A stretch of 64,000 nucleotides of DNA from Methanomassiliicoccaceae archaeon (GTDB lineage: Archaea; Thermoplasmatota; Thermoplasmata; Methanomassiliicoccales; UBA472), in the NCBI GenBank assembly GCA_963768775.1, contig CAVYIY010000005.1, positions 159,028 to 223,027 on the forward strand. The letters run 5' to 3'. Shown here piece after piece: positions 9,619 to 64,000 of this stretch. How positions within the stretch are numbered: the first letter of the stretch is position 1; every line of letters begins with the position of its first letter. The position numbers and the translations under genes were made by a program. Under the pieces are notes generated by a model. That model made no database searches. It saw only the letters and a program-made list of their open reading frames with translations, and was not told the DNA's origin.

Positions 9619-10529
9619 CAACCACGGAGCGCACAATCGCCTGCCGTCATTGCGGTTCAACGGATGTCAGCAAGGATGGCAAATACAAGGATGCACAGTA
9701 CTACATTTGCAAAGATTGCGAGAGCAAATTCTCAGGTAAGGATTGCTATCCCAAGATGAAATACCCCAAAGAGGCCAATGTCAGAGCATTGACTTACTAC
9801 TACAATGGAATGTCGTACAAGGCTATCAATCACACGCTCAGCGACATAAGCAAGATATCGCCGAGCAAATCAACAATATGGAATTGGGTGATTAAGTACT
9901 CCAAACTGACCAACCGATATGTTCTCACACTGAAACCCCATCTATCGGACAAATGGATTGCTGATGAGACGGTAATAGACATCTGGGGTGAGCATTACTG
10001 GTTCTGGGACATAATAGACACTGAAACCAGATTCCTCATCGCATCTCACCTTTCAAGAACACGGACTGAGAGAGATGCGACTAAACTATTCCAAATGGCA
10101 AAGTTGCGGAGCAAATACAGACCTGCCATAATTATCACGGATAAATTGGGGCAGTACAACAAGGCATTCAGAAAAGTGTTTTATTCGAGTACACCAAGCC
10201 ATAAGGCATTCCATCTGACCTCAGAGGGATTCCAATCGCCTACGAATACCAATCTCATAGAGAGGTTCCACGGTACACTCAAACAACGGACGAAAGTTAT
10301 GAGAGACTTGAAAGAAAAAAATAGTGCCAGGATTGTTCTCGATGGCTATGTCACGCATTACAACTTCTTCATGGAGCATCAATATCTGGAAGGATTAACC
10401 CCTGCCGTGGCGGGTGGCATAGGCGGGGATTTGCATAATTGGGGAGACATGATAGACCAGGCTCTCAATGCACCCATTGAGAACCCCCAAATAACTCTCG
10501 AATGGGAGGAAGAATATCGTGTGGAATGA
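9597..10529 (+). CDS. IS6-family DDE transposase with an N-terminal zinc ribbon
   Basis: The ATG is at 9597. The zinc ribbon is CRHCGS...CKDCES. The IS6-type core is WIADETVIDIWGEHYWFWDIIDTETRFL...IITDKLGQYNKAF...NTNLIERFHGTLKQRTKVM. Confidence 0.8.
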   Translation: MAEHIEITTTERTIACRHCGSTDVSKDGKYKDAQYYICKDCESKFSGKDCYPKMKYPKEANVRALTYYYNGMSYKAINHTLSDISKISPSKSTIWNWVIKYSKLTNRYVLTLKPHLSDKWIADETVIDIWGEHYWFWDIIDTETRFLIASHLSRTRTERDATKLFQMAKLRSKYRPAIIITDKLGQYNKAFRKVFYSSTPSHKAFHLTSEGFQSPTNTNLIERFHGTLKQRTKVMRDLKEKNSARIVLDGYVTHYNFFMEHQYLEGLTPAVAGGIGGDLHNWGDMIDQALNAPIENPQITLEWEEEYRVE

Positions 10530-21655: not shown

Positions 21656-21706
21656 GACAGCAAGATTCAAAAGGGGATGAATACATGACTATTATGGTTG
21701 CAGCCT

Positions 21707-23143
21707 ATGAAGTCGAGTTCGAGTATTACTGCGAATGTTATTTGGCCATCAGCTGGCTTTTCGACTATCAAGAAGATAACCATCGCGCTCGTTAGCGGAA
21801 GGACGGTTCGTTCAGACCTCGTTCATAAGGCGAGTGTTAGCAAAAGTGCAATGAATAATGCTTTACCTATAATGCGAAATCTGCAAATCGTTCAATCAGA
21901 AGGGTACAGAAAAACCTCCCTCAAGTTGACGGAGGATGGGGAAGAACTTGCAACAGCATTGAAGAACAACAACGAAGATGGATTGAATCTCATTGGAGAA
22001 AGATTGCTCAATAATTCCCCAGTCCTGAAATCGGCTAAATCAAGACTCGTTCAGAATCCGCAAATCAATTTGGAAATCCTTGGTCACCAATTGGCCGAGG
22101 AATTTGGAATGAGATGGGACCACTCAGGTACTTATAGAAATGTAGGCCAGCACTCAAAAAGTATTCTTATGAATTTTGGGGCAATCCCACGAACTGGTAT
22201 GAGATCTTCCAATGGAGGGTATATTGTGCCCAATAGGACCACATTGGTCCCATCGACATCAGCTGAAATGATTTTTGATTTCATTAAGAAACTTGACCGA
22301 GAACAGGCAAAGCCAATTGTGGGGAGTCTGGAACCAAGTTCAACAAAGACATATCGGTTAGGGCGATTCAAATCACTTATCGACCTCGACCTTGTCGAAT
22401 CACCATTGGGGGACAAATGTTTTCGCCTAACTGAAAGTGGATTGAGATTGAAGCGAGCAATCCAAAACGGGGAGGAATCACGAGTATTTGCTGAAATTAT
22501 CTTTGAATTTCAGCCCTCCAAGGAGGTAATTCTTATTCTTTCAAATGCTAAACAGACATTCAATTCTACTGAAATAGGCAACAATATCGCTGAATATAAT
22601 GGTGCGAATTGGGGAAAGGAGACAAGCAGACAAGAAGGATTGCGATTCCTTTCTTGGCTTAGAACAGCTGGAATTGCTCAACAAAATCATGAACCAGGCA
22701 AGTATCGAATAACGCTTGCCCCTGTTCTCTTTTCTGTTTCATATGTGTCAAAAGTTGTTCCTCCATTAGAAGTAAAGAAGATCGAAATGCCTGAACCTCC
22801 ATTGCAACTAATTGTGAAAGACCATTTCGTTATGGACGAAAGGGAAATGATTAAAGAATTGGATAGATTCCTCATAAAAGCAGGGGAAATACTCCATACG
22901 AACCCAAATGAAAGTGAAATTGGAGATTATTTCGCCGAAACAGGTAGAATATTAAATGCGATTGTTGAAATTGCTGAGAAAGAAAAGAAACAAGAATGGC
23001 TTGCGATTCATCTTCGAGACCTCACCGAGATCGTTTTAAGATTGAATAATTTGGAAATGCTCGAAGAAATGGTAACTTTCGCGTATCTATGGAAGAAGGT
23101 TTTAAAAGAGAATGATGATTATTATTCGAGAACACCGGGATAG
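21707..23143 (+). CDS. Hypothetical protein with several winged-helix-like DNA-binding modules
   Basis: ORF 21698..23143 with the first ATG at 21707. The segments RSDLVHKASVSKSAMNNALPIMRNLQIVQSEGYRKTSLKLTEDGEELA, RLGRFKSLIDLDLVESPLGDKCFRLTESGLRL and GLRFLSWLRTAGIAQQNHEPGKYRIT look wHTH-like. No family is recognised. Confidence 0.55.
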   Translation: MKSSSSITANVIWPSAGFSTIKKITIALVSGRTVRSDLVHKASVSKSAMNNALPIMRNLQIVQSEGYRKTSLKLTEDGEELATALKNNNEDGLNLIGERLLNNSPVLKSAKSRLVQNPQINLEILGHQLAEEFGMRWDHSGTYRNVGQHSKSILMNFGAIPRTGMRSSNGGYIVPNRTTLVPSTSAEMIFDFIKKLDREQAKPIVGSLEPSSTKTYRLGRFKSLIDLDLVESPLGDKCFRLTESGLRLKRAIQNGEESRVFAEIIFEFQPSKEVILILSNAKQTFNSTEIGNNIAEYNGANWGKETSRQEGLRFLSWLRTAGIAQQNHEPGKYRITLAPVLFSVSYVSKVVPPLEVKKIEMPEPPLQLIVKDHFVMDEREMIKELDRFLIKAGEILHTNPNESEIGDYFAETGRILNAIVEIAEKEKKQEWLAIHLRDLTEIVLRLNNLEMLEEMVTFAYLWKKVLKENDDYYSRTPG

Positions 23144-23208
23144 CGAAGATCGGTATCGCAGCCCTCTCATCGGTAGGCAGTTCGGGGGTTCAAATCCCCC
23201 TCCCGGTA
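23134..23208 (+). tRNA. tRNA-like sequence (central CAT, so Met/Ile2-type?) with a defective anticodon stem; a possible tRNA pseudogene
   Basis: The acceptor ACCGGGA/TCCCGGT, D arm GCGA-AGATCGGTA-TCGC and T arm GGGGG-TTCAAAT-CCCCC all pair perfectly. The anticodon arm GCCCTCTCATCGGTAGGC forms only 3 clean base pairs. Confidence 0.45.
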
Positions 23209-23576
23209 CCTCTTTCCTTCTTTATCCCAGTGTCTCGAACGTCCTTGGAGCTGCCACTTCGAAGTTGCAGCCACGAAGTCGAAAGCTCCCGGACTGTATA
23301 CACTCAGGAACTAATGTGTCTTAAAGGGTTTGCGCTCATTCCTTCTATTGATTCTTAGTCGAAGCTGATATGAATGAATGTTGATGGTGCAATCGATCAT
23401 TATGATGAATTCTACCTTCAAATAAAGGATTATTATGATCTATTGAAACAAAACTGTATTACAATGGCATTACACGAATCAAATCTAAATCACAGTTGTC
23501 GATTAGAAACACGATGAATCGTTCGAACGTCCTTTTAGAGTGTTAACGATAAATAGAAAATCGAGAAGTATGAAAG

Positions 23577-23591
23577 TTGTACCTAAAGTCG
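23577..23591 (+). repeat. Extra iteron copy TTGTACCTAAAGTCG upstream of the small zinc-ribbon gene
   Basis: Matches the TTGCACCTAAAGTC consensus at 13 of 14 positions and lies 62 nt upstream of the ATG at 23653. Confidence 0.4.
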
Positions 23592-23652
23592 GCTGTGGGT
23601 AGTTTCACTGTAATTGGCGATTTGAATAGCATCCTATGACCTTCAGCAGATT

Positions 23653-23802
23653 ATGTGGTTGAAACCAAAGAAGCGAGAAGTTCTAGTCCTGAGAATGGTT
23701 GGCAAATGCCCAGAATGCGGAGCGGCTTTGTGGTCTGGATCGCAGAAATGCGGAAGATGTGGAAAATTGATCGAAAATAGATTTCATTTGGCTGGCAAAT
23801 AA
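23653..23802 (+). CDS. Small zinc-ribbon protein (49 aa)
   Basis: Hand translation gives MWLKPKKREVLVLRMVGKCPECGAALWSGSQKCGRCGKLIENRFHLAGK, with the CPxCG...CGRCG motif. It is below the 60-aa cutoff of the ORF track. Confidence 0.4.
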   Translation: MWLKPKKREVLVLRMVGKCPECGAALWSGSQKCGRCGKLIENRFHLAGK

Positions 23803-24779
23803 GTCTCTATCGTTGGATTGGGGCGAATGCCCTTTCGAATCCTTTCAACCATCGAGTTCAACTCATCCCAGTATGAACAAACACTCATGATCTCTCTGAT
23901 TGCCAATTCATCAATCTCTCCTTTCTCGGTTGAAGGTAGTTGGATTTTGAAGTCCTTTAACTTCTCGTTGAAGCACTTACGGCCATACGAATACCTCCAC
24001 GTTTCACGATTCAGCATATATTGAATGAAGATGAGAGTGGATAGCATAATTGTCTTCTTGGGCAAACAGACGGCGACGTCATCCTTGGCCGCAAAGGTAT
24101 ATGGATGGTATTTCGTGAGAAGAGGCCACGATCCATTGTAGGCGATAGTCAGGCATTGAGAATAGGTCTTATTCTTGGGCACCTCAACGAAGCCAACTAT
24201 CCCATTGTTAATATTTCCGCAAGAAACTAAAGGCGTCTTACCTGGATGCAGCTCAGACGCATTATGGTAATCGCCCGAGTTCAAGTCGAAAATGGATTTT
24301 AGTGAGTGAAATTTGAATCGGCTTATTGATGGAGTAGCAGAGTTATTCTTCCTCTCTGGCAAAATATTGTGAATGTCAGTCAGCCTTATTTTTGAGAATT
24401 GCTCGATTGGAAGCTGAATCGCCTTCAGTCTTGTAGGGGTGAGTTTTCTTCCAAAAGAAAAGCGCCATCTTGAATTAGTAATAATACTGGCAATGAAAAA
24501 TAGCTTTTCAAGTTCGATCTTTTGCTTTGGAATAAGAACGGTGATGTCATCTGGCACAGTCGAAAAATCGACGGTCTGAACGAAGGCATATCCAGCAACT
24601 CTTTCGACCGTTATTGCTGGTGCTTTAAAGCTCGGAGTAGCCTTTACAAAGCCAGTAACTCCATTGTTTTCGGTCGTTGCAGAAATTAGAGGAGTAGGAC
24701 CAGCTTCAAAATCCTCGATATAGCCGCCTTTTCCCTTCTTTGGATAAAAAAGTTCATCAATCGTCGCCATGAAATTCAT
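23784..24779 (-). CDS. Restriction-modification specificity subunit with two TRD-like repeats (BcgI-B-like)
   Basis: 331 aa with an internal duplication: ...PLISATTENNGVTGFV...DDITVLIPKQKIELEKLFFIASIITNSRWRFSFGRKLTPTRLKAIQLPI is repeated as ...PLVSCGNINNGIVGFV...DDVAVCLPKKTIMLSTLIFIQYMLNRETWRYSYGRKCFNEKLKDFKIQLP. The start overlaps the upstream methylase gene by 23 nt. Confidence 0.65.
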   Translation of the reverse strand: MNFMATIDELFYPKKGKGGYIEDFEAGPTPLISATTENNGVTGFVKATPSFKAPAITVERVAGYAFVQTVDFSTVPDDITVLIPKQKIELEKLFFIASIITNSRWRFSFGRKLTPTRLKAIQLPIEQFSKIRLTDIHNILPERKNNSATPSISRFKFHSLKSIFDLNSGDYHNASELHPGKTPLVSCGNINNGIVGFVEVPKNKTYSQCLTIAYNGSWPLLTKYHPYTFAAKDDVAVCLPKKTIMLSTLIFIQYMLNRETWRYSYGRKCFNEKLKDFKIQLPSTEKGEIDELAIREIMSVCSYWDELNSMVERIRKGIRPNPTIETYLPAK

Positions 24780-26613
24780 CTTCCTTTGCGCCTCTGATTA
24801 GGAACGCGACGTTGTCCCTGATAAGACTCTCTGCATCGAGCCTGATCTTCTCGGATGTAACAGGCTCATCGTCGAGATAGGCTTCAGGGCACAATTCAAA
24901 CAGTTCATCCTCGTCATTTATCTCGATTGCCTTCTGCATTTGAGGTATATTTGGAACGCTAATGCTCGGGTCTACCAGATATGATGCCAATATAGGTTTG
25001 AGCGTCTCCAAATCATTTGGTTCGCTTGGATTGGGGAGTCTCTTGCCTTTCTTCAGTTTATACCCATCATGGGCCGCTCGGAGCCATAACACCTTTTGAT
25101 TGCCTTGTGGCACACCTTTTCTGATGAATACTCCTACAGTTATGACCCCCACTCCAGGTTGAAATAATTCTTGCGGAAAAGAAATCACGCATAATAGGCT
25201 ATTCTCTTTTACCAGCCTTTTCCTCCAGCTAAGGTAGCCTCCTTTTTTAATCATGCATGAATAGGGCAGGACTGAAAACAGTAACCCCTCATCTTGCATT
25301 TGTTTCAAAGCCTGCTCTACGAAGAGAAATTCCTTCTTGTCGGTCTTCTTCTTTGGAAATGGCGGATTCATTAAGACCCTGGTAATTGGAGGAACCCGCT
25401 TTTCGGTTTCTTCATTAAGGTATTCAGCTCCGACTACTCCGTTTTTTGAAGACAGATTGAGATATTTGCGGAAACAATTTCCTTCAATGATGTTGTTTTT
25501 GCCATCACCCCTGAAGATCATGTTGACTAACGCAAGAGCCACAATTGTATCCTGTTCTTCGATTCCGTACAAACCGACCTTTCTGAACTCTTGGAAATCT
25601 CGATCATTTGCTTTCTTCTTGACCTCGTCGAAAGCGGCTACCAGGAAGCCTCCAGTTCCACAGGTTGGGTCAAGAACGAGGTCATTGGCGTTGATGTTTG
25701 TGACCTCTGCGGCGAGACGAGTTACGTGGCGAGGCGTAAGGACAATCCCTATCTCCTTTGCCCCATTGCCATATTTCAGGAAGACCTCGTAAAATTTGCC
25801 GAGAACATCCTTTCCCGAACGCATTGCCGAATGGATGTTTAGTCCCAGCAGTTCCTGAGTGGTCTTAACAATTGCCGATTTTAGCTTTATGTGATTATCC
25901 TCACTTGATGGAAGGTCGATATGGATAAAGGGGGAGAATTCGGATTTATTCTCAGCTTTTAGCACAAGGTCTACTCGTTGATTAATTTGGCTAACGAGTT
26001 CTGGTGGACTTAGATTCAAATCGACATCGGGCTTCCGCGTCATGGCTAGAAGGATCGCAGAAATGAACTTCGCCCTTGCATCTTTATGAATGGCGTTTTC
26101 ATGAAGAATTCCATTGATCTCCTCAGCCGTTCTGAGAAAATCTTCTTCAGAAATCTCAATGTCCTTTATGTTGGCATCGTCGTTTTTTAGAACCTGCTCA
26201 ATCTCGGTAGCAGAGAGTAAGGCGGTGACTTCTGAGTTATTCTCAGTAATTATTTCCCAGGATCCATTCACCAAATACCTGCTCGTTGCAATATATCCTT
26301 CTTCATCATTGCCAGCAATGCCAGTGCAAAAATGTGCTTTTATGAATTTGCTATTATTGATGTCATCGCAATATCCTATGGCTTCCTTGATTGCTTTTTC
26401 GAGGAGAACGCGCTTACTTTTAGCTTCTATGACATAGAATTGGTTGTTTGAAATCTCAACGATGTTTTCAGGGACTCCGCCTTTGAGTTGCTCTTTCAGA
26501 TACCTGTTATTATTGCATTCGTTTTGTGTGAATATCTTCCCCTTCCAACCCTTTTTCGACCTCAGTTCCTTAAGGATATGAACGTAAGCATGAACTTCCG
26601 TGACCGAATTCAT
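24757..26613 (-). CDS. N6-adenine DNA methyltransferase fused to an N-terminal PD-(D/E)xK-like nuclease domain (Type IIB/IIG-like RM subunit, BcgI-A-like)
   Basis: 618 aa. MTase motif I is VLDPTCGTGGFLVAAF and motif IV is LMNPPFP. The N-terminal roughly 130 aa contain VPENIVEIS...FYVIEAKSK (E...ExK). No separate restriction endonuclease or HsdR gene is nearby. Confidence 0.75.
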   Translation of the reverse strand: MNSVTEVHAYVHILKELRSKKGWKGKIFTQNECNNNRYLKEQLKGGVPENIVEISNNQFYVIEAKSKRVLLEKAIKEAIGYCDDINNSKFIKAHFCTGIAGNDEEGYIATSRYLVNGSWEIITENNSEVTALLSATEIEQVLKNDDANIKDIEISEEDFLRTAEEINGILHENAIHKDARAKFISAILLAMTRKPDVDLNLSPPELVSQINQRVDLVLKAENKSEFSPFIHIDLPSSEDNHIKLKSAIVKTTQELLGLNIHSAMRSGKDVLGKFYEVFLKYGNGAKEIGIVLTPRHVTRLAAEVTNINANDLVLDPTCGTGGFLVAAFDEVKKKANDRDFQEFRKVGLYGIEEQDTIVALALVNMIFRGDGKNNIIEGNCFRKYLNLSSKNGVVGAEYLNEETEKRVPPITRVLMNPPFPKKKTDKKEFLFVEQALKQMQDEGLLFSVLPYSCMIKKGGYLSWRKRLVKENSLLCVISFPQELFQPGVGVITVGVFIRKGVPQGNQKVLWLRAAHDGYKLKKGKRLPNPSEPNDLETLKPILASYLVDPSISVPNIPQMQKAIEINDEDELFELCPEAYLDDEPVTSEKIRLDAESLIRDNVAFLIRGAKEDEFHGDD

Positions 26614-26765
26614 TTCTTATTCCCACCCTTCTTGATCCAATCACTTAATGCCTCTTCGCCCGCTTCCGACAAGTGGCCTTTCTTCATTCCCAGTCTATGT
26701 GACACTGCATCTCTGAACCCTTCATCCACATCATCGCTGACGACTAGGAGAATTTTTTTAGTCAA
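26610..26765 (-). CDS. Small ribbon-helix-helix-like protein, a putative R-M controller
   Basis: Hand translation gives (L)TKKILLVVSDDVDEGFRDAVSHRLGMKKGHLSEAGEEALSDWIKKGGNKK. The TGA overlaps the methylase ATG (ATGA). There is no ATG, so a TTG start at 26765 is assumed. Confidence 0.4.
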   Translation of the reverse strand: MTKKILLVVSDDVDEGFRDAVSHRLGMKKGHLSEAGEEALSDWIKKGGNKK

Positions 26766-26847
26766 GTAGACCAAATATATATGTGCATATCCAATTATAT
26801 AACTATCTAGTTATGATGATAATGTGATATATGAATATCATCTTACT

Positions 26848-27012
26848 TTAATCAGTTATTGATGACTTGGTTTTGCGTCTTGGACTATCCCAATACGGGC
26901 TTTTACATTTAGGGCAGACGCGCGGCTTAGGCGGTTCGGCAACGATCTGTTTCGGAGCCCATTTGTGCTTGCATCTAAGGCACTCGAATCCAGCCACCAT
27001 GATTCTAGGCAT
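26848..27012 (-). CDS. Small zinc-ribbon protein (54 aa)
   Basis: Hand translation gives MPRIMVAGFECLRCKHKWAPKQIVAEPPKPRVCPKCKSPYWDSPRRKTKSSITD (CxxC...CxxC). It is more plausible than the antisense track ORF 26867..27067. Confidence 0.5.
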   Translation of the reverse strand: MPRIMVAGFECLRCKHKWAPKQIVAEPPKPRVCPKCKSPYWDSPRRKTKSSITD

Positions 27013-27122
27013 GATGAATGAAGGTATGTACTCTATGATATATTATCTTTCGGTTGTCATTCGGTAGCCTGGTAGCAACCTTAATATATACCTAATGAGT
27101 ATATACCTATTAGGTAAGAAAT

Positions 27123-28373
27123 ATGGCACACCTTGAAAAGACAACAAGAGAAGATCGCGCCAAGCTTATCGCGCGTAAAGCAAACTCGATTAATGAAGTT
27201 AAACCAGGCATATTCGCAGTCAAATCGCAAAGCGGAATAGGCGTATATCGAGTCGAGAATAATCGGGGCTGGAAATGCAATTGCCCAGATCATGTTACCA
27301 GGGGAGTCGATTGCAAGCATATCCTTGCGACTAGATATTACCTTGAAGCGCAGCACGAAACGCCGGAAGGTGTCGTTACGGAGAAGATTAGGCTGACCTA
27401 CAATCAGGCTTGGTCAGCTTATAATTCAGCTCAGGAGGAAGAGGTAAGGCTCTTCGACAAGCTCCTGAGCGAATTGGTTGAGGGGATACCGGAGCCAGAA
27501 CAGGTGATGGGCCGTCCTCGATTGCCGCTCAATGAGCAGCTTTTCTGCTCAATCCAGAAAGTCTATTCCCAATTGTCCAGTCGTCGCGCCCATAGCCTCT
27601 TCAAGAACGCCAATGAGAGAGGGCAGATCGGCCATGCGCCCCACTTCAACGCGCCATCCAAGCTGTTCAATCGGCCTGAGATCACGCCAATCCTCCATGA
27701 GCTGATAAGGCTCTCCGCCATGCCAGTTGCCGACATCGAGACGGACTTCGCAATCGATTCGACCGGATTTAGGACAACGACGTTCAATGCATACCACGGA
27801 GAGAAGCACAACGTCAAGAGAAAGCAGAACTGGCTCAAGGCGCATATGTGCTGTGGAGTGAAGACCAACATTGTTACGAGCATTGAGGTAACAAATGAGT
27901 TTGGCGCGGATTCCGTCCAGTTCCAGCCCCTCCTTGCGAAGACGGCTGAGTCGTTCAAGATAAACGAGGTAAGCGCGGATATGGCCTATTCCTCACGCGC
28001 CAATTTGCAGGCCGTTGGCGACCTTGGAGGAGTCGCTTTCATCCCTTTCAAGAGCAACGTGAACGGTAAACCCACTGGTTCGCCTTTGTGGAAGAAGATG
28101 TACCACTTCTTCCAGTACCACAGGGAAGAGTTCGAGGCGCACTACCATAAGCGGAGCAACGTGGAATCCACAAACGCGGCCATTAAGCGGAAGTTTGGGG
28201 AGACGCTGAAATCGAAGAACCTGATTGCTCAAACTAACGAACTATTGGCTAAGATCGTGGCCTATAACCTCACGGTGATAATCCACGAGATGTATGAGAA
28301 TGGGGTGGAGCCGGACTTCCTGCACATACATCCTAATCCGGGCAACGACGCCTTAAGCGCGGATGCATCATAA
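27123..28373 (+). CDS. IS4-family DDE transposase with an N-terminal SWIM zinc finger
   Basis: 416 aa. The SWIM motif CxCx(n)CxH is WKCNCPDHVTRGVDCKH. The DDE context is FAIDSTGF and VSADMAYSS. There is an exact IS4 YREK signature Y-(2)-R-(3)-E-(6)-K in HYHKRSNVESTNAAIKRKFGE. Confidence 0.8.
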   Translation: MAHLEKTTREDRAKLIARKANSINEVKPGIFAVKSQSGIGVYRVENNRGWKCNCPDHVTRGVDCKHILATRYYLEAQHETPEGVVTEKIRLTYNQAWSAYNSAQEEEVRLFDKLLSELVEGIPEPEQVMGRPRLPLNEQLFCSIQKVYSQLSSRRAHSLFKNANERGQIGHAPHFNAPSKLFNRPEITPILHELIRLSAMPVADIETDFAIDSTGFRTTTFNAYHGEKHNVKRKQNWLKAHMCCGVKTNIVTSIEVTNEFGADSVQFQPLLAKTAESFKINEVSADMAYSSRANLQAVGDLGGVAFIPFKSNVNGKPTGSPLWKKMYHFFQYHREEFEAHYHKRSNVESTNAAIKRKFGETLKSKNLIAQTNELLAKIVAYNLTVIIHEMYENGVEPDFLHIHPNPGNDALSADAS

Positions 28374-28394
28374 ATAGGACGAAATAACACAACA

Positions 28395-28556
28395 TTACTT
28401 GGACATCGCGTCTTTCCATTGTTCCATCCATTTCCTATATGCCCATCTATGCAATTTGCATGCATTACGTTTTGGAATGCTGTGCGCATGAGGACATACT
28501 TCGTCGTCGGTGATCTCCAACTCTCCTTTCTTTAAAGATTCCACGAACCATGACAT
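28395..28556 (-). CDS. Small Cys/His-containing protein (53 aa)
   Basis: Hand translation gives MSWFVESLKKGELEITDDEVCPHAHSIPKRNACKLHRWAYRKWMEQWKDAMSK. It lies inside the transposon and is below the ORF-track cutoff. Confidence 0.35.
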   Translation of the reverse strand: MSWFVESLKKGELEITDDEVCPHAHSIPKRNACKLHRWAYRKWMEQWKDAMSK

Positions 28557-28897: not shown

Positions 28898-30366
<1,469 letters not shown>

Positions 30367-31086: not shown

Positions 31087-31191
31087 GCGGAGGTGGCCCA
31101 GCCAGGCAAGGCGTTGGATTGCTATCTCGCCCTAGCGGGGCAAACATCCAATGTCCGTGAGGACTCGGGGGTTCAAATCCCCCCCTTCGCG
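31087..31191 (+). tRNA. tRNA-Ser (anticodon GCU) with a 21-nt intron at the canonical 37/38 position
   Basis: The acceptor is GCGGAGG/CCTTCGC. The anticodon stem is TTGGA/TCCAA and the loop is TT-GCT-A. The intron spans 31125-31145. There is a 15-nt variable arm (class II) and the T arm is GGGGG-TTCAAAT-CCCCC. Confidence 0.85.
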
Positions 31192-55110: not shown

Positions 55111-55255
55111 GCCAAACCTTCCTTCTCAAACCCCAACAAACCCAATCCAGCACTTCTGATTGCTTATCGTCTCATGTCCGCAAGGGTCGCGCCGCCTCCG
55201 GTTTCTCGCTGCGCAAAGATAATTGCATGGCACAGTGTTCCAGCATGGGATCAGC

Positions 55256-57026: not shown

Positions 57027-57100
57027 GGGCCGGTAGATCAGCCCGGAAGATCGCCTGCTTTGCAAGCAGGAAGTCCGGGGTTCAAATCCCCGCCGGTCCA
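57027..57100 (+). tRNA. tRNA-Ala (anticodon UGC)
   Basis: The acceptor is GGGCCGG/CCGGTCC with a G3:U70 pair. The anticodon arm is CCTGC-TTTGCAA-GCAGG. The T arm is CGGGG-TTCAAAT-CCCCG. Confidence 0.9.
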
Positions 57101-57117
57101 CCTTCTTCCTATCTGGC

Positions 57118-58194
57118 TCATGCGTCAATAACCACCTTTTTTGACATATCGATCGGATTCTTCATCCAGGCGTCGCGGAGTTGTTTGCTGACCGATTCGT
57201 GCTCGATCTCTGCATAGAACCGCTGCGTCGTTGTTAGGCTCGTATGCCTCAGCTGCCGACTTACTGCAGGAAGCAGGGAGAGGTCTTCATTGACGGTCAT
57301 CGAGGCGCAGGTCGAGCGGAAGTCCTTCAAACGGAAGGAGACGCCGGAGATCTCTTCCACTTCGCCCTTGATGACCCTGAACGAGTTTGCTGAGAAGAAC
57401 TCGTCCCTGCCCCTCCAAGTGTTGGGGAACAGGGCAGAGGCCTTCTCGATGCCGATCTCGTTCAGATGCTCCTCTCTTTCGTTGAGATAGCGCATGAGGA
57501 GCGGGACCACTTCGGCCCTGACGATATCGACCTCCTCCTGAGCTCCCCACGATCCTTCGCCCTTCGGATGTCGTACGAAGAACCTCATCCTCGATAGCTT
57601 GAGGTCTTCGACATGGGCAAGGCGGAACTCCTTCGGCCTCAGCATGCAGCCCATCGCCAATGCCGTCATGCCCCGCGCTACCGCCCCGTGCCATCCTTCC
57701 ATCCCGCCCACTGTCGCGAAGATAGTCTCGAGGTCATCCTTTGGGATGACCCTGATCTTGCGATGTGCCTTCTTCGGAAGGTCGCATCCTCTTCGCTCCA
57801 TGTCCAGGAAAGCATAGTTGCCGCAGAAGGCGAAGAACCCCTTGAGGTACTGGATATGCTTCAGCTGGGTCTCCCCATTGAGTCCTTTCCTTCTCATCCA
57901 AGCAAGGAATTGCCGTACCTCCGGCTCGGTGATGTGTCGAGGATCCGACGTGCTGATCAGCCCGTTGGTCTTGAGGTCCTCTAACACATCCCCGATGTAC
58001 CGGAGCTTCCGTTCTTCTTCCCTGTATGTGCTGTCGGCCACTATGCCCACCCGTGTCCCCATGTAATAGGGGATAAGCGCGTGGCAAGGCCGCGCCCCTA
58101 GGTGCAGCCTTGCCACCTCCTTGTCGTCGCTGAGGCTCCGCGCCAATCGCTTGCGCGTTCGCGATCGCCTCCGGGATGAGCATCGGCGGGACAT
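57118..58194 (-). CDS. Tyrosine recombinase / phage-type integrase
   Basis: The catalytic-domain pattern is GCMLRPKEFRLAHVEDL (Arg I), LKDFRSTCAS, and LRHTSLTTTQRFY (RH...Y). Confidence 0.85.
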   Translation of the reverse strand: MSRRCSSRRRSRTRKRLARSLSDDKEVARLHLGARPCHALIPYYMGTRVGIVADSTYREEERKLRYIGDVLEDLKTNGLISTSDPRHITEPEVRQFLAWMRRKGLNGETQLKHIQYLKGFFAFCGNYAFLDMERRGCDLPKKAHRKIRVIPKDDLETIFATVGGMEGWHGAVARGMTALAMGCMLRPKEFRLAHVEDLKLSRMRFFVRHPKGEGSWGAQEEVDIVRAEVVPLLMRYLNEREEHLNEIGIEKASALFPNTWRGRDEFFSANSFRVIKGEVEEISGVSFRLKDFRSTCASMTVNEDLSLLPAVSRQLRHTSLTTTQRFYAEIEHESVSKQLRDAWMKNPIDMSKKVVIDA

Positions 58195-58205
58195 TTCTTA
58201 AGTCC

Positions 58206-59528
58206 TCACTTGGTCAAAAGTCGGTCTACGATCGCCGCTATGCCCGATTCTCTCATTTCTGTGAATGACTTTAAACTTCGTTCGATTTGCTGCTTGACCG
58301 TCTTTGCCAGCAATTCGCGGTTCGCGAAATTCGTGTCTAAAATAAACGTTTTAGAATTGTTTAGACTTAACGGCGTGTACTCGAAGGTTCGTGTCTCTAG
58401 GCCCGACATGTAGTCGGTGCGCTTTCGCGATGTAAGCAGGTTCTTCTTCTCAAGATCATGCGCGTAGACGTAGCAAGATTCGGCACTCATCGCCTCTCCC
58501 CATTTCTTCTCTGTCCGGGCGGAGAGCTCCACCTTCGTGAGCCATTCTTCCGGCTCGAACAGCTTCAAGAACCTCGTCAGATACTCCGGGGTGCTGGTCC
58601 GCTGCGCCTCCTCGTTCGCCTCGTAAATGGCCATCCCCGCCCGGATGTCGGCCATGGATGTCAGCACCAGAAGCGTCTCGTCGTCCTCGAATGTCGTGCT
58701 TTGGAACCGGTTGGCGTAGGCGATCGCAGATATGAGCGCGTCCAACATCGGGCGGCGATTCCTGCGCCCGTGCTCCGTCTCGCAGATGTGCCTACCGAAT
58801 GGATTCAAGACCAGCGGACGCTTGGGCTGGAGGTTGTCCAGGTCCATTATCTTCTTGATGATATGACGCGCTGCTGACACCGCCGGCGATTCATCACATC
58901 GTCGGCCGAAGGTCGATTGCTCCTGTTGCATCGTCTCGATCGCGTAGCCTTGCTCGTCCGTGTTCTCGTGATTCACCTTGAAGAAGCGGTTATGCAGTTG
59001 GTTGCCAGCATCCTCGACCAGCTCGTAGGTGTTCGTCCATACCACCGGCAGCCCCTCGATCGTCATCTCCCGGTACTTCTGATCCTCCACGGTCTTCAGG
59101 GTGAGCCGCTTCCGGTCGTTGGTGGTGGCCTTCTTGACGAACTGCCGTAACATTTCGCTCATGTCGTTGAGCTCGTCAATCATCACAATGCGGCCATCGT
59201 ATAGGCGCGGGTTCCGCTTCTCGCGGATCTCATAATACATCGCTTTTGGTGAGATCTCGGTGATGTCCTCGAATATGCTCGGAAACAGCACCATGCCCGT
59301 CTGCGTCTCCAGGAACGTCTTTCCGTGCTGCGATTCAGCCATCGTGAGCATGTGGAGCTTGGTGGGCAGTCTCGCGCTTATTCCCGAATATAGAAGCGAG
59401 TCCTTGACGTTCCTCTCCCCGGCCACGTTCTCATTAATAGCGTTGTCGACGTACTGCTTCCAGGTGCCACTCACAAGCGACTCGTCGGCTAGCTTGAGAA
59501 TGTCACCCATCGTCTCGGGAAGGTCCAT
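58206..59528 (-). CDS. P-loop NTPase, superfamily-3-helicase-like putative replication protein
   Basis: Walker A is AESQHGKT, Walker B is RIVMIDELND and motif C is like VVWTNT. The ATG at 59528 is preferred because it abuts the RHH stop; the ORF track extends to 59648. Confidence 0.55.
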   Translation of the reverse strand: MDLPETMGDILKLADESLVSGTWKQYVDNAINENVAGERNVKDSLLYSGISARLPTKLHMLTMAESQHGKTFLETQTGMVLFPSIFEDITEISPKAMYYEIREKRNPRLYDGRIVMIDELNDMSEMLRQFVKKATTNDRKRLTLKTVEDQKYREMTIEGLPVVWTNTYELVEDAGNQLHNRFFKVNHENTDEQGYAIETMQQEQSTFGRRCDESPAVSAARHIIKKIMDLDNLQPKRPLVLNPFGRHICETEHGRRNRRPMLDALISAIAYANRFQSTTFEDDETLLVLTSMADIRAGMAIYEANEEAQRTSTPEYLTRFLKLFEPEEWLTKVELSARTEKKWGEAMSAESCYVYAHDLEKKNLLTSRKRTDYMSGLETRTFEYTPLSLNNSKTFILDTNFANRELLAKTVKQQIERSLKSFTEMRESGIAAIVDRLLTK

Positions 59529-59529
59529 C

Positions 59530-59703
59530 TCAGTGATCACCGCACTTACCTGAGCGGAGTGGCGTCTCGAGTTCTTCGAGATGGTCTCTGACAGCGGCCT
59601 CAATGAAAGCTGAGCGCGAAACGGCTCCACAGTTGGTTTGGCGCTCACTATCGATCGTGTCCAAAAGCTCTTTTTTTATCGAAATCGCGATTCGCGTTTT
59701 CAT
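59530..59703 (-). CDS. Ribbon-helix-helix (CopG-like) DNA-binding protein
   Basis: The ATG is at 59703. MKTRIAISIKKELLDTIDSERQTNCGAVSRSAFIEAAVRDHLEEL follows the beta-alpha-alpha RHH pattern. Confidence 0.6.
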   Translation of the reverse strand: MKTRIAISIKKELLDTIDSERQTNCGAVSRSAFIEAAVRDHLEELETPLRSGKCGDH

Positions 59704-59801
59704 CGCAAAGGACATTAGTATTAAGGATAATATCTTTGAACAAACATACACTTCAAAGAAATGTGTAGGCAAGTTCAATTGTGGGAGGAGTGGAGGCTTG
59801 A

Positions 59802-60743
59802 GTGAAAGGAACGAATATCGGATGGAAAGAGGCAAAGAAATGGAATCTCCCAATAGGATGGTTATTGGAAGCTCAGGAATTGAAAACGAAAGACCTATTC
59901 GAGCACAATAGAAAGGCATTCAACGAACAATACATTGCGTATCGGCTCGAGATCAATAAGTTGTTTGGACTGGGCTCGATAATTAGGGATCCAAGATTCC
60001 AGGATTATGACAAGATTGTTAAGAGTGAAAGGGCTAAGGCAAACGGCCGAGAGTTGGTACGTATTCTAGTCGATGAGGCATCAAAGCCACCCTCAGCATA
60101 CGAGGAAAGTCGTAAAGGACGAGGTTCTCCTCATACTACGCTCGAAGCCCGAAGGCTCTGGCTCCAGGAATTCATCCCGAGAGCACATGTTCGTAGATTG
60201 CTAGTCGTCCCAAAGAATTGGAAGCCAGATCCAGAAGACCTGAAAGCCTTTAAAAAGAGGGAGGATTACATTGTTGCACTCAAAAAGATCGAATCAGGGG
60301 CTTTTGAGAATGACGAGAAGCGCCGAAACGCAATTGAAGGATTCCAAATAAGGTATGCTCTAGCTCGCGTCGAGAACCTCAAATTCATCTTCAAATATGA
60401 CCGCGAATTCGACCGAGTGATCGAAAAGCTGATTGAAGTCAGGATCATCGAGCGCAAAATGCCCAAAGATAGGAAGTTAAGTGGATTCACGTTCTATCGA
60501 GTGATTCCTCGCTCGCAAGAACAAGGTTCCACTGAATTTAGAAATCGACCATTGACTGAGCACGAACTCAAGGAAAATGTGCGAGTCACGTTAGCGAAGG
60601 AAGCCCTTTATTGGGCTGGCCTGGACGATTCGAATCATTATCAGATCTTGAAAATGGACAAATCCATCCTCAAGAGATTGCAGGATCACATCAAGCATCG
60701 TCTGGCCGAAATATTTGAGGTTAGCGAGTCAGAGATTGATTGA
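59802..60743 (+). CDS. Hypothetical protein (313 aa, basic, helical)
   Basis: GTG start with a GGAGG 5-6 nt upstream. It is followed by the perfect palindrome GACGAGCCGGCTCGTC at 60773-60788. No homology is recognised. Confidence 0.45.
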   Translation: MKGTNIGWKEAKKWNLPIGWLLEAQELKTKDLFEHNRKAFNEQYIAYRLEINKLFGLGSIIRDPRFQDYDKIVKSERAKANGRELVRILVDEASKPPSAYEESRKGRGSPHTTLEARRLWLQEFIPRAHVRRLLVVPKNWKPDPEDLKAFKKREDYIVALKKIESGAFENDEKRRNAIEGFQIRYALARVENLKFIFKYDREFDRVIEKLIEVRIIERKMPKDRKLSGFTFYRVIPRSQEQGSTEFRNRPLTEHELKENVRVTLAKEALYWAGLDDSNHYQILKMDKSILKRLQDHIKHRLAEIFEVSESEID

Positions 60744-60969
60744 GTGAGTGATTATTAGACGGCATATAATCTGACGAGCCGGCTCGTCGCTACATCAGGT
60801 GAGGCGATGGGATTATTCCATGCCTCTTGCCTATATGATCGATAATTATGAATGAACGCCAGTTAGCTGATATCCGCCAGGGGTCCGAATCGGTCACTCG
60901 ATGATCATTGCGGAATCCTCGCATAGTGTACTACACGAGTTGAGCTCAATGTCGGAAGGTTGAAAGGCA

Positions 60970-61425
60970 TTGCCGCTGATGATGTCGAGGAAGGACATGG
61001 TTGTCGGCGAGGACATCCTGATTGATAGGCTGCTGGGTGCGCTGGCCGCTTGGTATGGCAGAAAAAAGGACCAGAAGGAAGCGGCACGAAAGACCCTAGT
61101 GGACCTTCGAATCGCGGTCAAACAGATCAAACTCCACATGGACCTATCGAGATTGCCGGGGGATGGAATTAATTACGGCAAACTGAAACCTTTATTGCCG
61201 GGGGATGTCGAATATCTATTCAAGGCAATCGAGACACATAAGGACGACCTTGACTTGGATCTCACGAGCGCCTTATTCGCCTTCCAAGAATTTCTTGTCC
61301 ATTTTGTCCAGAAGACGAACCTCATGGGCATCGGCAATAACCTATCCACGGATGAGAAGTTAATTGAATCAGTGGCAATTAAGCTAGATGAGAAAATCTC
61401 GGATCTGCTGAAAGATCTAGGTTAG
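60970..61425 (+). CDS. Hypothetical protein (151 aa)
   Basis: Intact ORF inside the integrated element. Confidence 0.4.
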   Translation: MPLMMSRKDMVVGEDILIDRLLGALAAWYGRKKDQKEAARKTLVDLRIAVKQIKLHMDLSRLPGDGINYGKLKPLLPGDVEYLFKAIETHKDDLDLDLTSALFAFQEFLVHFVQKTNLMGIGNNLSTDEKLIESVAIKLDEKISDLLKDLG

Positions 61426-61470
61426 AAGAGTCGGATCGAAACAATCAATTTATTAATTTGCACGCGATTA

Positions 61471-62065
61471 TTGAATCCAGCTGAAAAGATGGTTAAGCCT
61501 ACAGATTTTGATTATTACTGCAAGTTAGTGGATATTTGGAGCCATCAGGACGAGTCTTTCTGGGCATCATATAACATTTTTCTAGTTATGCAAGGTATTC
61601 TTTTTATTGCCATCTTCCAAGCCAAGAGCATCGCATCGTTTGGGCAGAATCCTTACGAGTCTTATTGCGGTAGTTGGATTCCTCATTACGTTGGCTTGGC
61701 TCTTCACTGGCAATAGAAGAAAACTTGCAATCCGACTAACTAGTCGCCAGGCTCGATACCTGGAGAAGAAAATATTTTCGGAAGAACTTCAATGGGAGAA
61801 TGGAATACCGAAAGGTAGGGTTGAGGATTATTTTCCCATGTTCTTCAGCGGAAACAGAGCGGTGATGGCTAGCGCTGATTTCACCCTTGAACCTCATGAA
61901 GAGAAAATCAAGGAGCACTTCTCATCCACAAAGACTAAGCCAAAAACAATATCTGGGAAAATAGACCAGCACTTTTCCCATAATAGTGAATCAAACGTTA
62001 TGACGGTATGGGTCCCGTTTCTCTTTTTGTTCGCTTGGGCAATCCTCTTTCTTTGGCAGCTTTAG
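61471..62065 (+). pseudogene. Hypothetical membrane protein, either frameshifted near 61625-61650 or two overlapping ORFs
   Basis: ORFs 61471..61716 and 61607..62065 overlap. A hydrophobic helix continues across the frames (..GILFIAIFQ / ILTSLIAVVGFLITLAWLF). Confidence 0.3.
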
Positions 62066-62112
62066 CACTGTTGAAAATCGTCCTTGCTGATAAGCGACGT
62101 CGACGATCGCCG

Positions 62113-62859
62113 TTATGGTCGAAAGTGCTTCTTGCTCCTAATTAGAGGTTCCTCACTCCGCGATTTCCTCTTTCTCAATGGTGCGATGAAAGTCAAATAC
62201 GATATCGACATTTCGATGGCAGCGATGAATAGCAGGATTTCGGTGACCACGAAGTTCAGAGATACCAGGTCATTCTGATTCCTGAACGTGCTCGATTGGA
62301 CTGAGACACTGGAAATGAATGGCTGGGTATAATTCTTGCCGGTGTCAAGATCCTGAACCTTCAAATACAATGGCCTATCCCCCGCAACATGGTAATTGAC
62401 CCAGATGTTATCGATCCACATTCCAGACTGTGCATCTCTATTCAGTTGCATGAAGCCAAATTGATTAATGTCAGACACGCTAGGCCCGTAGTAGGCTCCA
62501 TCAGCGAAGATCTCAACGGTGTAGTTACCCGCTGTGACGATTTGCCCCGAACTCCTATCTATCTCTATCAGGATGATTGCTTCATTTGTGTCTCCAACGA
62601 CGATATCGGGGCCTGCGTTCTCAAAGATAAATTTCGCCTCCATCGTTCCTGTTGGCAATTTGAGTTCACCTAATGCTGGTTGGGGACCAGGACTCTTGGC
62701 CTCGAAATTGAGTTGCAGAAGATTATAGCCAATTGCGCCAAGAAGTATGATCCCAATTAGAAAGGGGATAAAGCCAGCCCACCACAAGATCCTTTTCTTT
62801 CGTCCAGGCCTTCCTAAGAAGTATCTCAAACGGCCAAAGGCTTCCATATCATCAATCAC
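62113..62859 (-). CDS. Hypothetical membrane-anchored protein with N- and C-terminal TM helices and a beta-rich ectodomain
   Basis: 248-aa ORF. The TM helices are ILWWAGFIPFLIGIILLGAIGY and VVTEILLFIAAIEMSISYLTFIA. Confidence 0.45.
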   Translation of the reverse strand: MIDDMEAFGRLRYFLGRPGRKKRILWWAGFIPFLIGIILLGAIGYNLLQLNFEAKSPGPQPALGELKLPTGTMEAKFIFENAGPDIVVGDTNEAIILIEIDRSSGQIVTAGNYTVEIFADGAYYGPSVSDINQFGFMQLNRDAQSGMWIDNIWVNYHVAGDRPLYLKVQDLDTGKNYTQPFISSVSVQSSTFRNQNDLVSLNFVVTEILLFIAAIEMSISYLTFIAPLRKRKSRSEEPLIRSKKHFRP

Positions 62860-62879
62860 TTCCTCGAGCGCTGCTGCTT

Positions 62880-63311
62880 CTACGTCCTGAGCTTACGGTG
62901 CTTGTCGAGTCGGTTTAAATAGTAACCCGATGCTGTTGTCTGATAAGCGAGCGCGGTTACACGCTCTGCCGCGGCGATTGGCTTTTTGTTGTTCCTTATT
63001 TCGCTAATAGCATCCTCCAGGATGATGGCAATCTCGTCAAGCATTTTGTCATCCAATGGTATTGTGGTGTCTCCCTTGTTGATTGCTTTCAACCTTGCTG
63101 AGAGCTGAGCGTGCGCATCTCGCAAGATTATGCCAAACACCTGCCAAGAGTGATTGTCATTCAGCCTTGCCGCAATGTCCAAAGCCTCAGCGGCAGCGCC
63201 AAAGAAGAAAACTCTTTCAGCGATGTCCTTCCCATTGTTTATCATCTTCACGATAAAATAGAGTTCATCTGTCAATTGCGTTCTGACGTCATATCCAAAT
63301 GGGTTGTCCAT
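62880..63311 (-). CDS. Hypothetical protein (143 aa, helical)
   Basis: Intact ORF in tandem with its neighbours. Confidence 0.4.
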   Translation of the reverse strand: MDNPFGYDVRTQLTDELYFIVKMINNGKDIAERVFFFGAAAEALDIAARLNDNHSWQVFGIILRDAHAQLSARLKAINKGDTTIPLDDKMLDEIAIILEDAISEIRNNKKPIAAAERVTALAYQTTASGYYLNRLDKHRKLRT

Positions 63312-63315
63312 TGAA

Positions 63316-63549
63316 TCACCCTAGTCCGGGGAATAATTCGGCTTCGCGCTCTTTGACGATTGTGATGGAGGCCTCTACCCAATTTGAACGATTGGCGAAG
63401 ACATGTCTGCCACCATTATTACGGACAAAACCCCGTTTCAAAACTTGTCGAACGAAATGACATCTTGTGCCAACCGTTATTGCAGATAATGGGCTCATTG
63501 ACCTGTAATCACACTCCCTTGGTCGACGATTTGGAATTCTTCTTATCAT
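63316..63549 (-). CDS. Hypothetical small basic protein (77 aa)
   Basis: The ORF overlaps the upstream ORF by 41 nt. Weak support. Confidence 0.25.
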   Translation of the reverse strand: MIRRIPNRRPRECDYRSMSPLSAITVGTRCHFVRQVLKRGFVRNNGGRHVFANRSNWVEASITIVKEREAELFPGLG

Positions 63550-64000
63550 GATATGTTAAAGAACTCTGATATCCACAAGCGTTCCATAACGAATCTATGG
63601 CGTTGGACATTAGATCATGTACATCGGCCTCATAGTCATCAACAATCGATTCAGGCAAAGTTAGCACATCTCGGTCAATTTTAGCAGGCCTAGCCTCACT
63701 GAACCACATCATCCCTCTTCCAGAAGGCGCTTCGTACCCCTTCACTCCGACCAGAGTAACGAAAATATAAACCGGAGGCGGAACATTCTGGTGTTTCAGA
63801 ATTTTGAGCATCTCAGAGATGAATTCCGGGATCATCTTTTCAAATTCTTGAAGAGGCATGTATCTTCGTCCATTATCAGATGCGAGAGCGCCAATGCTCA
63901 ATAAAGCACCCTCAACTTCCTCAATGATGCCCTTCTTATAGAATTGAGTGTAAGAGCGACACAATTGATTGGACCCACTGTCGATTCTGAACATAAGGAT
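63509..64000 (-). CDS. Hypothetical protein, possibly 5'-truncated by the window edge
   Basis: The frame stays open from 63994 to the window end (..IL-MFRIDSG..). Confidence 0.4.
   Translation of the reverse strand: MLMFRIDSGSNQLCRSYTQFYKKGIIEEVEGALLSIGALASDNGRRYMPLQEFEKMIPEFISEMLKILKHQNVPPPVYIFVTLVGVKGYEAPSGRGMMWFSEARPAKIDRDVLTLPESIVDDYEADVHDLMSNAIDSLWNACGYQSSLTYHDKKNSKSSTKGV

Follow-up and report, generated by a model that had tools for sequence, protein, structure and literature searches.

The right end of a 64,000-nt stretch of DNA from a Methanomassiliicoccaceae archaeon (contig CAVYIY010000005.1; the whole stretch is called the window) carries, from position 57027 to position 64000, a tRNA-Ala(UGC) gene and, beside its 3' end, an operon in which a small gene for a ribbon-helix-helix (RHH) protein comes first and genes for a 440-aa P-loop replication protein (rep) and a tyrosine integrase (int) follow, with genes of lower G+C content (GC) beyond it. 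An earlier reading of the DNA, the original prediction, had described this segment as a mobile element integrated at the tRNA. On the chromosomal side, 5' of the tRNA, lie ilvD and the gene for ribosomal protein S10; the best named relatives of the ilvD protein belong to Methanomassiliicoccales, and the host is assigned to that order. Protein families were sought in the window with Pfam, PHROG, NCBIfam, and PADLOC, and RNA genes with ARAGORN and Rfam; the features of the segment are collected in Table 1. Contigs used for comparison bear labels beginning with L (L001 and L002 come from Logan and L030 from JGI), and one of them, L002, is 100% identical to the window over 61658–64000 (2343 nt) and adds 5966 nt beyond position 64000 (the L002 extension), giving 12.9 kb of available sequence from the tRNA rightward. 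GC is 0.563 in the host flank, 0.578 in int, and 0.551 in rep, and then falls; the predicted drop is therefore real and reaches 0.45, but it begins at ~59.5–59.7 kb, past the RHH gene, and not at the tRNA. Values of 0.42–0.50 persist to ~68.5 kb, within the L002 extension.

Table 1. Features of the window between positions 57027 and 64000, with the basis of each assignment.
Feature	Position	Strand	Basis and remarks
tRNA-Ala(UGC)	57027..57102	+	ARAGORN; Rfam tRNA, 65.3 bits; intact
Predicted attachment (att) core, AATCCCCGCCGGTCCACC	57085..57103	.	Analogy with the L035/L037 element
GCCAGATAGG motif	57108..57117	-	Between tRNA and integrase stop; single copy in window
Tyrosine integrase, 358 aa, intact	57118..58194	-	Pfam Phage_integrase, E 7.2e-9 (above cutoff); PHROG integrase, E 1.4e-20
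Replication protein (Rep), 440 aa, MCM-like AAA+ ATPase with C-terminal winged helix (predicted)	58206..59528	-	PF27228, precomputed; AlphaFold; Foldseek
RHH (CopG-type) protein, 58 aa	59530..59706	-	Pfam RHH_1, 23.3 bits (cutoff 20.5)
313-aa protein	59802..60743	+	Open reading frame, divergent from operon; low-GC cargo begins here
151-aa protein	60970..61425	+	Open reading frame; no significant Pfam, PHROG, or NCBIfam match
8xMP-like membrane protein in two frames (61471–61716, 61607–62065)	61471..62065	+	Pfam 8xMP, both halves below curated cutoff
248-aa protein with hydrophobic N- and C-terminal segments	62113..62859	-	Open reading frame; no family match (Pfam, PHROG, NCBIfam, PADLOC)
143-aa protein	62880..63311	-	Open reading frame; exact product also on L002
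Schlafen/AlbA_2-domain protein, C-terminal part of 404 aa	63509..64000	-	Full gene at L002 5244–6458; Pfam SLFN_AlbA_2, E 1.3e-13

The integrase gene is whole, as had been predicted, and its product shows the catalytic set R186, K211, K290xxR293, H317, and Y327 in the alignment, box II being K290-D-F-R293 in place of the HxxR box described before; its stop codon lies 15 nt, and not 18 nt, from the tRNA end called by ARAGORN. Because the gene is unsplit, the mode of integration can be classed from the gene arrangement as type II, i.e., non-splitting and lambda/pNOB8-like; gene splitting of the SSV type does not occur here, since the integrase gene is complete and ends short of the tRNA. The earlier label of a pNOB8-type element is apt for this mode of integration but not for the sequence signature. 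According to the signatures of She et al., as quoted in PMC8371274, SSV1-type integrases carry R...KxxR...Y and pNOB8-type integrases R...YxxR...Y, and the enzyme of the window has the SSV1-type KxxR. XerA, XerC, and XerD models give 32–37 bits on it, against cutoffs of 220–335. The ratio of nonsynonymous to synonymous substitution rates (omega) is 0.07–0.11 for the integrase and 0.09 for rep, low values that reflect purifying selection and thus indicate that both genes have been kept functional.

The evidence for insertion comes from the same locus in relatives, compared on contigs whose ilvD proteins are 91–92% identical to that of the window. Three of these, which answer an earlier suggestion to look for empty sites, have no element: L011 and L013 have a DEAD/ResIII helicase gene directly behind the tRNA, L030 has ilvD, the tRNA, and a DEAD helicase gene, and the similarity of the window to all three ends at ~57102–57106, at the tRNA 3' end. 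The empty-site flank, as in L011/L030, also includes genes for a DUF1801 protein and a response regulator. L010 carries at this site an integrase 95% identical to that of the window, together with a large terminase subunit (TerL), and all the genes between integrase and TerL are unrelated to those of the window. Nucleotide identity between the window and L010 is ~83% in ilvD and 66% in the spacer. From the tRNA to 57909 it is higher, first 97% and then ~94%, and it is lost from 58210, at the integrase start; likewise, ilvD shows 1.0 synonymous substitutions per synonymous site (dS) and int 0.32. The step of identity and dS at the tRNA means that the integrase segment is younger than the split of the hosts and has spread horizontally in recent times, and a boundary at the tRNA is what a horizontally spreading element predicts. 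Taken together with the empty sites, this step shows the segment to be mobile. The opposite situation, with the same genes conserved in synteny in all relatives, is not what is found, given the empty sites and the exchanged cargo of L010. The comparison of L010 with the window can be read as replication-module swapping on a common int...TerL backbone. Within the occupied site of L010 (12946–21650), a 450-aa P-loop protein with Walker A GPTNSGKT and a weak Parvo_NS1 match (E 0.0012) takes the place of rep. The host side of the locus also varies among these contigs: a gene for a 291-aa mechanosensitive channel lies between S10 and ilvD in L010–L013 (L010 9056–9931), where the window has 77 nt (55133–55209), and L011 (2698–5777) and L013 (5211–8290) have, between ilvD and tRNA-Ala, ~3.1 kb occupied by small genes, among them those for a DSPc phosphatase and CsbD, a stretch missing in the window, L010, L012, and L030.

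The same module is also present at other tRNA-Ala genes. The nearest one, with 87% identity in Rep and 86–87% in the integrase, is located at tRNA-Ala(GGC) beside purF, L37e, and LSM genes, a different chromosomal place, and the tRNA-Ala(GGC) arrangement recurs on at least 24 contigs; the corresponding empty site is seen in L046 (15220–15447), where a Rieske-protein gene, tRNA-Ala(GGC), and purF follow one another without interruption. The homology to L003 spans exactly rep, int, and the tRNA and ends at the rep start. A third host has a more distant module (Rep 40%, integrase 55%) at tRNA-Ala(UGC) next to ilvD and S10, and L016 has a 51–53% identical integrase at the same tRNA; in both L003 and L016 just the last integrase codons overlap the tRNA 3' end. 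Thus, the module occupies three distinct chromosomal contexts, and the integrase family targets tRNA-Ala genes, in at least four lineages.

In one of these relatives the ends of the element can be recognized. In L035/L037, the last 17 nt of tRNA-Ala(GGC) plus 1 nt (AGTGGACCGGGCGAGATT) form a perfect 18-nt direct repeat with copies 6.6 kb apart (E 3e-5), and between them lie a 104-aa gene, a sulfatase gene, a 158-aa gene, rep, and int, with no viral genes. This 6.6-kb element extends over 3589–10198 of L035, and its sulfatase gene has host-like GC; L036 matches it with 99% identity from the sulfatase to the right and has another left flank and no attR copy. The bounded relative, the empty sites, and the identity and dS step uphold the central claim of the original prediction, an integrated mobile element at tRNA-Ala(UGC). 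This tRNA is the integration target, its 5' part being chromosomal and its 3' end forming attL. The 18-nt repeat of L035/L037 suggests by analogy that the att core of the window is probably also ~18 nt long and lies at about the position given in Table 1, so that the 43-nt repeat proposed earlier (57060–57102) is probably too long. The GCCAGATAGG motif, possibly an integrase-binding site, also adjoins the tRNA in L010 and L035; in L035, an inverted pair, TTTTTAGCCAGAGGAG / CTATCTGGCAAAAA, flanks the 18-nt core 5–6 nt outside it on each side.

Searches of sequence collections for the tRNA 3' end have added little to this. The exact 30-nt pattern, which is probably too long given the 18-nt core, has 0 matches in IMG/VR and 18 in JGI metagenomes, one of them on L010, and a scan of IMG/VR for the 17-nt core returned 4 contigs only, all unrelated. 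Ten of the JGI matches were not called as tRNAs by ARAGORN; they are apparently tRNAs with introns from other archaea and were rejected as att fragments. Assembly breaks within the tRNA (the end of L001 at 57054 and that of L012 at 57051) were likewise set aside as att evidence, a strain single-nucleotide polymorphism at 57052 being the better explanation.

For rep, the N-termini of homologues favour the 440-aa ATG start over the 480-aa GTG start of the gene caller, which would overlap the RHH gene, and the stop codon lies 11 nt from the integrase ATG. All the motifs predicted for this protein are present, with Walker A (AESQHGKT) at 64–71, Walker B (VMIDELND) at 115–122, and TN, the sensor-1 element, at 164–165; the key residues are K70, D118/E119, and N165, and Walker A, Walker B, and motif C fall within ~100 residues, a spacing that suits superfamily 3 (SF3) helicases but other AAA+ clades as well. 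The AlphaFold model has a mean predicted local distance difference test (pLDDT) value of 91.4 and a predicted template modelling (pTM) score of 0.91. When it was compared with PDB by Foldseek, the best 50 matches were all MCM subunits (E 5e-9 to 1e-6), with template modelling (TM) scores of 0.43–0.47 on the query and ~0.6 on ATPase-only chains. Within the library of viral structures, A460 of fusellovirus SSV-K1 ranked first among the named matches (TM 0.59), followed by D5-like and NrS-1-like primase-helicases (TM 0.25–0.38, E ~1e-8 to 1e-6). Moreover, a profile search against PDB sequences finds a C-terminal winged helix of TFE/MarR-like type (E 8e-8) and a weak MCM match (E 0.008).

The model shares with MCM helicases the ATPase fold, a pre-sensor-1 beta-hairpin (residues 141–158, with strands 141–148 and 151–158, ahead of the sensor-1 strand 162–167), an invariant arginine, R181, in the motif NRFF across 54 aligned Rep sequences (SRFD in MCM, by comparison with which R181 may be a trans arginine finger), and a C-terminal winged helix as in archaeal MCM (PMC4357721); BcMCM of a Bacillus cereus prophage (PMC2715239) is likewise MCM-like in its AAA+ part alone. 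Nevertheless, the differences from MCM are considerable, as only ~60 helical residues precede Walker A and no N-terminal OB/zinc domain is present, no hairpin is seen between helix 96–104 and the Walker B strand and hence no evident helix-2 insert, identity is ~10–14%, and local Pfam scans (the MCM model included), like those with PHROG, NCBIfam, and PADLOC, gave no match. Rep is therefore called MCM-like because of its fold matches, hairpin, and winged helix, and is placed outside MCM proper for want of the N-terminal domain and the helix-2 insert; as far as the model goes, it is a helicase or initiator of MCM-like AAA+ type that carries a winged helix, and helicase activity would be expected of it. 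The assignment to SF3 made earlier finds no support.

An exhaustive HMMER search found relatives of Rep in 166 cluster representatives, whereas a word-indexed protein search gave just 4. Among the 54 that were aligned, fusions to Prim-Pol (two), a DnaG zinc ribbon (one), and Gins51_C (one) occur, and the MCM model (PF00493) matches two weakly, whereas SF3 families match none. Rep and all its close relatives have a precomputed match (E <= 1e-5) to PF27228 (MTBMA_p00010_2nd). Member names in 20 Rep clusters read "hypothetical protein" and, once, PadR regulator, with none more informative, and no Rep relatives were found in IMG/VR, PLSDB, or INPHARED. Distant Rep relatives in L004 (115–6327) and L046 (311–6067) lie a few kb from complete type I restriction-modification operons.

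The RHH gene precedes rep as had been predicted, with an RHH_1 match above the cutoff and a stop codon (59530–59532) 1 nt from the rep ATG (59526–59528), a gap that suggests translational coupling. A small gene also occupies this position in relatives, coding for an RHH protein in L006 and for 75 aa in L032/L041. Neither iterons nor other notable repeats were found near the operon, and no origin was recognized.

Beyond the operon lies the low-GC cargo. The 313-aa protein has no Pfam, PHROG, NCBIfam, or PADLOC match, and its single-sequence AlphaFold model (pLDDT 34) is unusable; PADLOC reports nothing in the cargo as a whole. At its end, 61648, L001 reads GCAGATC in place of the window's GCAGAATC, and one A fewer (~61647) would fuse the two 8xMP frames, whose split may stem from a mistake in assembly, from heterogeneity among strains, or from a true frameshift. 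In L002 the genes are those of the Schlafen/AlbA_2 protein, two small paralogous membrane proteins, a DUF5677 protein, a 353-aa protein, and a membrane protein with a PKD domain. The two paralogues (L002 1491–1919 and 4455–4928, equivalent to window positions ~65.0–68.5 kb) include one with a weak TrbC/VirB2 pilin match (E 6.8e-5, below cutoff). At the extreme end of L002, on the minus strand at extension position 69699–69965 and ~12.6 kb from the tRNA, are the last 89 residues of a TerL with an HDD motif; this fragment is 73% identical to the product of an L010 gene that matches PHROG terminase families (E 7.5e-12). With the L010 TerL as query, one distant protein (P0273) was obtained; the contig concerned, L034, carries a split TerL, two integrases, and no recognisable capsid genes.

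With considerable confidence, the segment at 57027–64000 can be taken as the left end of a mobile element integrated at the 3' end of tRNA-Ala(UGC), carrying an RHH-Rep-Int module and with a second att site that should lie outside the window. In such an element, the excised circle would carry attP, consisting of the 18-nt core and flanking motifs, just downstream of int, and the integrase would recombine a short copy of the tRNA 3' end carried on the element with the tRNA-Ala of the chromosome, leaving both the tRNA and int intact; it would also excise the element. The far-end copy of the core (attR) should then lie beyond position 64000 and read AATCCCCGCCGGTCCAC, preceded within ~10 nt by GCCAGATAGG. 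Rep, probably forming a ring, would melt or unwind the origin and replicate the excised circle, and the CopG-like RHH protein would autoregulate the RHH-Rep-Int operon as a repressor. The plasmid-type module may by now belong to a virus-derived element with low-GC cargo and a terminase, or have become joined to one. The element, which reaches a terminase gene ~12.6 kb away, may thus be a plasmid or a virus; it is either larger than 12.9 kb and equipped with a packaging gene of virus type, or a small rep-int element beside an older island with an eroded junction.

Several observations weigh against a single element of this kind. The window contains no second copy of the tRNA 3' end even when 3 mismatches are allowed, in agreement with the original prediction, but the repeat that it expected downstream is not present in the 5966-nt extension either; with the right end and a second core copy lacking throughout the 12.9 kb, a single att-bounded element is not proven. 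An exact scan of the 64-kb L010 for 30 nt of the tRNA 3' end also gave no second copy, although 30 nt probably exceeds the length of the core. No capsid, portal, or tail gene is present among the 12.9 kb. Furthermore, int and rep have host-like GC whereas the cargo is low in GC, and TerL is 73% identical to its L010 counterpart against 95% for the integrase, so that the parts may have separate histories or belong to separate elements. Finally, the match of Rep to PF27228 is solely a precomputed annotation, and our own hmmscan with local Pfam, a copy that may lack this recent model, returned nothing.

The alternative with most in its favour is a complete temperate head-tailed provirus, perhaps of 30–40 kb, in which the MCM-like helicase and the RHH protein would form the replication and lysogeny module and TerL would start the structural one, situated past the end of the available sequence. 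Archaeal viruses and proviruses often encode MCM-type helicases. MCM is also listed in integrated elements (PMC6563490), the C-terminus of TerL in the extension has a homologue in the terminase of L010, there is no att copy in the interval from int to TerL, and L010 has both genes at the same site. However, a PKD-domain membrane protein, and not a portal, lies downstream of TerL in sequence that is also without capsid and tail genes, rep, int, TerL, and the cargo have no relatives in IMG/VR or INPHARED searches (in IMG/VR, int, TerL, and two cargo proteins were without any), and the nearest rep-int relative resides in the 6.6-kb element devoid of viral genes, so that a provirus is a possibility to be kept in mind, on balance a doubtful one.

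The contrast in GC, host-like in int and rep and 0.45 from 59.7 kb, would be natural if two neighbours had been mistaken for one, namely an integrative plasmid of small size (int-rep-RHH, slightly more than ~2.7 kb) next to a low-GC island or decayed provirus of greater age, the att site between them having been lost or eroded. Tandem integration at a single site is known in archaea (PMC8371274), int, rep, and TerL diverge to different degrees from their counterparts, and homology stops exactly at module borders, comprising rep, int, and the tRNA in L003 and the tRNA and int in L010. This arrangement is nonetheless rather unlikely, as no trace of the core or of GCCAGATAGG is found across 59.7–69.97 kb with 3 mismatches allowed, and L010 pairs the same integrase with the same TerL family, which fits one backbone with an exchanged middle module.

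As a variation on the integrated element preferred here, a plasmid-virus chimera or a satellite can be imagined, in which a self-sufficient pME2001-type module (RHH, an MCM-like helicase truncated at its N-terminus, and a tRNA-Ala-specific integrase) circulates among Methanomassiliicoccales, both alone as an integrative plasmid of 6.6 kb and plugged into a terminase backbone, where it replaces an unrelated helicase module, and in which Rep represents an AAA+ lineage between MCM and SF3; we offer this tentatively, as an idea with the chances against it.

A pRN1/pNOB8-like integrated plasmid with an SF3 replication helicase is improbable. The spacing of Walker A, Walker B, and TN (70, 118, 165) would fit it, as would the D5-like and NrS-1-like matches in the viral structure library and the two relatives with Prim-Pol, recalling ORF904 of pRN1 (PMC2777425). 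On the other hand, neither Rep nor its 54 relatives has an SF3 match in Pfam while two of the relatives weakly match MCM, the best 50 PDB folds include zero SF3 proteins, TM scores are 0.25–0.38 for SF3-type viral folds and 0.43–0.47 for MCM, and the integrase has KxxR in place of the pNOB8-type YxxR. In ORF904, which is, like Rep, one large replication protein of plasmid type and combines prim-pol, SF3, and winged-helix parts (PMC2777425), the P-loop core is followed by a winged helix as in Rep, and a few members of the Rep family are fused to Prim-Pol, but the window's Rep is without a primase domain and its ATPase core is nearer to MCM than to SF3.

Lastly, fixed and domesticated chromosomal genes that are no longer mobile, such as a Xer-like recombinase and a cellular AAA+ protein, would account for the strong purifying selection on int and rep and for the related pair standing in the same place at tRNA-Ala(GGC) on at least 24 contigs from many samples, but are highly improbable in view of the empty sites, an int dS three times lower than in neighbouring ilvD and changing abruptly at the tRNA, the three chromosomal contexts, and the low Xer scores.

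Elsewhere in the window, a low-GC island (0.40–0.45) at 21700–28400 contains a gene for a 481-aa winged-helix protein, an N6 DNA methylase and a type I specificity subunit (23784–26613), and a DDE_Tnp_1 transposase (27123–28373), and is immediately adjoined by a lone 16S rRNA gene (28898–30366, minus strand). At the edge of this island, ARAGORN predicts a tRNA whose anticodon has four bases (catc; 23134–23210) and that has no Rfam confirmation at gathering score; a 105-nt tRNA at 31087–31191, found by Rfam and missed by ARAGORN, probably bears an intron. An IS240-type DDE transposase (9459–10529) lies within a separate low-GC patch (9–11 kb).

Among known systems, the element is closest in its manner of insertion to the type II archaeal tRNA elements (PMC8371274), with which it shares an intact integrase beside the tRNA 3' end, a restored tRNA, empty sites in relatives, and, in the close relative L035/L037, a direct repeat at both ends. 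It differs from them in the KxxR of its integrase, in the att core of the relative, which is only 18 nt, and in its host order, which has zero occurrences in that review. In its replication protein, it recalls pME2001 (pMTBMA4), a 4.4-kb multicopy plasmid of Methanothermobacter marburgensis that functions as a replicon (PMC8609365, PMC3087415) and is reported to have a putative Rep gene (PMC4379921), the role of MTBMA_p00010 as Rep being only putative. The name of PF27228 carries the locus tag of this plasmid, Rep and its close relatives share the precomputed match, and the relative's element is of plasmid size (6.6 kb), but the gene of the window is coupled to int and RHH genes, chromosomally integrated, and located in another host order, and the likeness is indicated by a precomputed family match. 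We take pME2001 to be the sole replicon used for Methanothermobacter vectors.

Elements integrated at tRNA genes and provided with an integrase and a helicase are common in archaea, where the kind is well known (PMC8371274, PMC6563490). The kind of element described here is thus ordinary, and what is added is the host order and a Rep family without a functional name, a finding that is solid rather than surprising. To our knowledge, few mobile elements have been described for Methanomassiliicoccales, which are methyl-reducing methanogens, and we know of no genetic tools for them. The tRNA-Ala site, the integrase family, the probable 18-nt att core, and the RHH-Rep-Int module could therefore seed integrative or replicative vectors. 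Moreover, the Rep family, with its 166 sequence clusters and a confidently modelled MCM-like fold minus the N-terminal domain, bears on how mobile elements acquire or donate replicative helicases.

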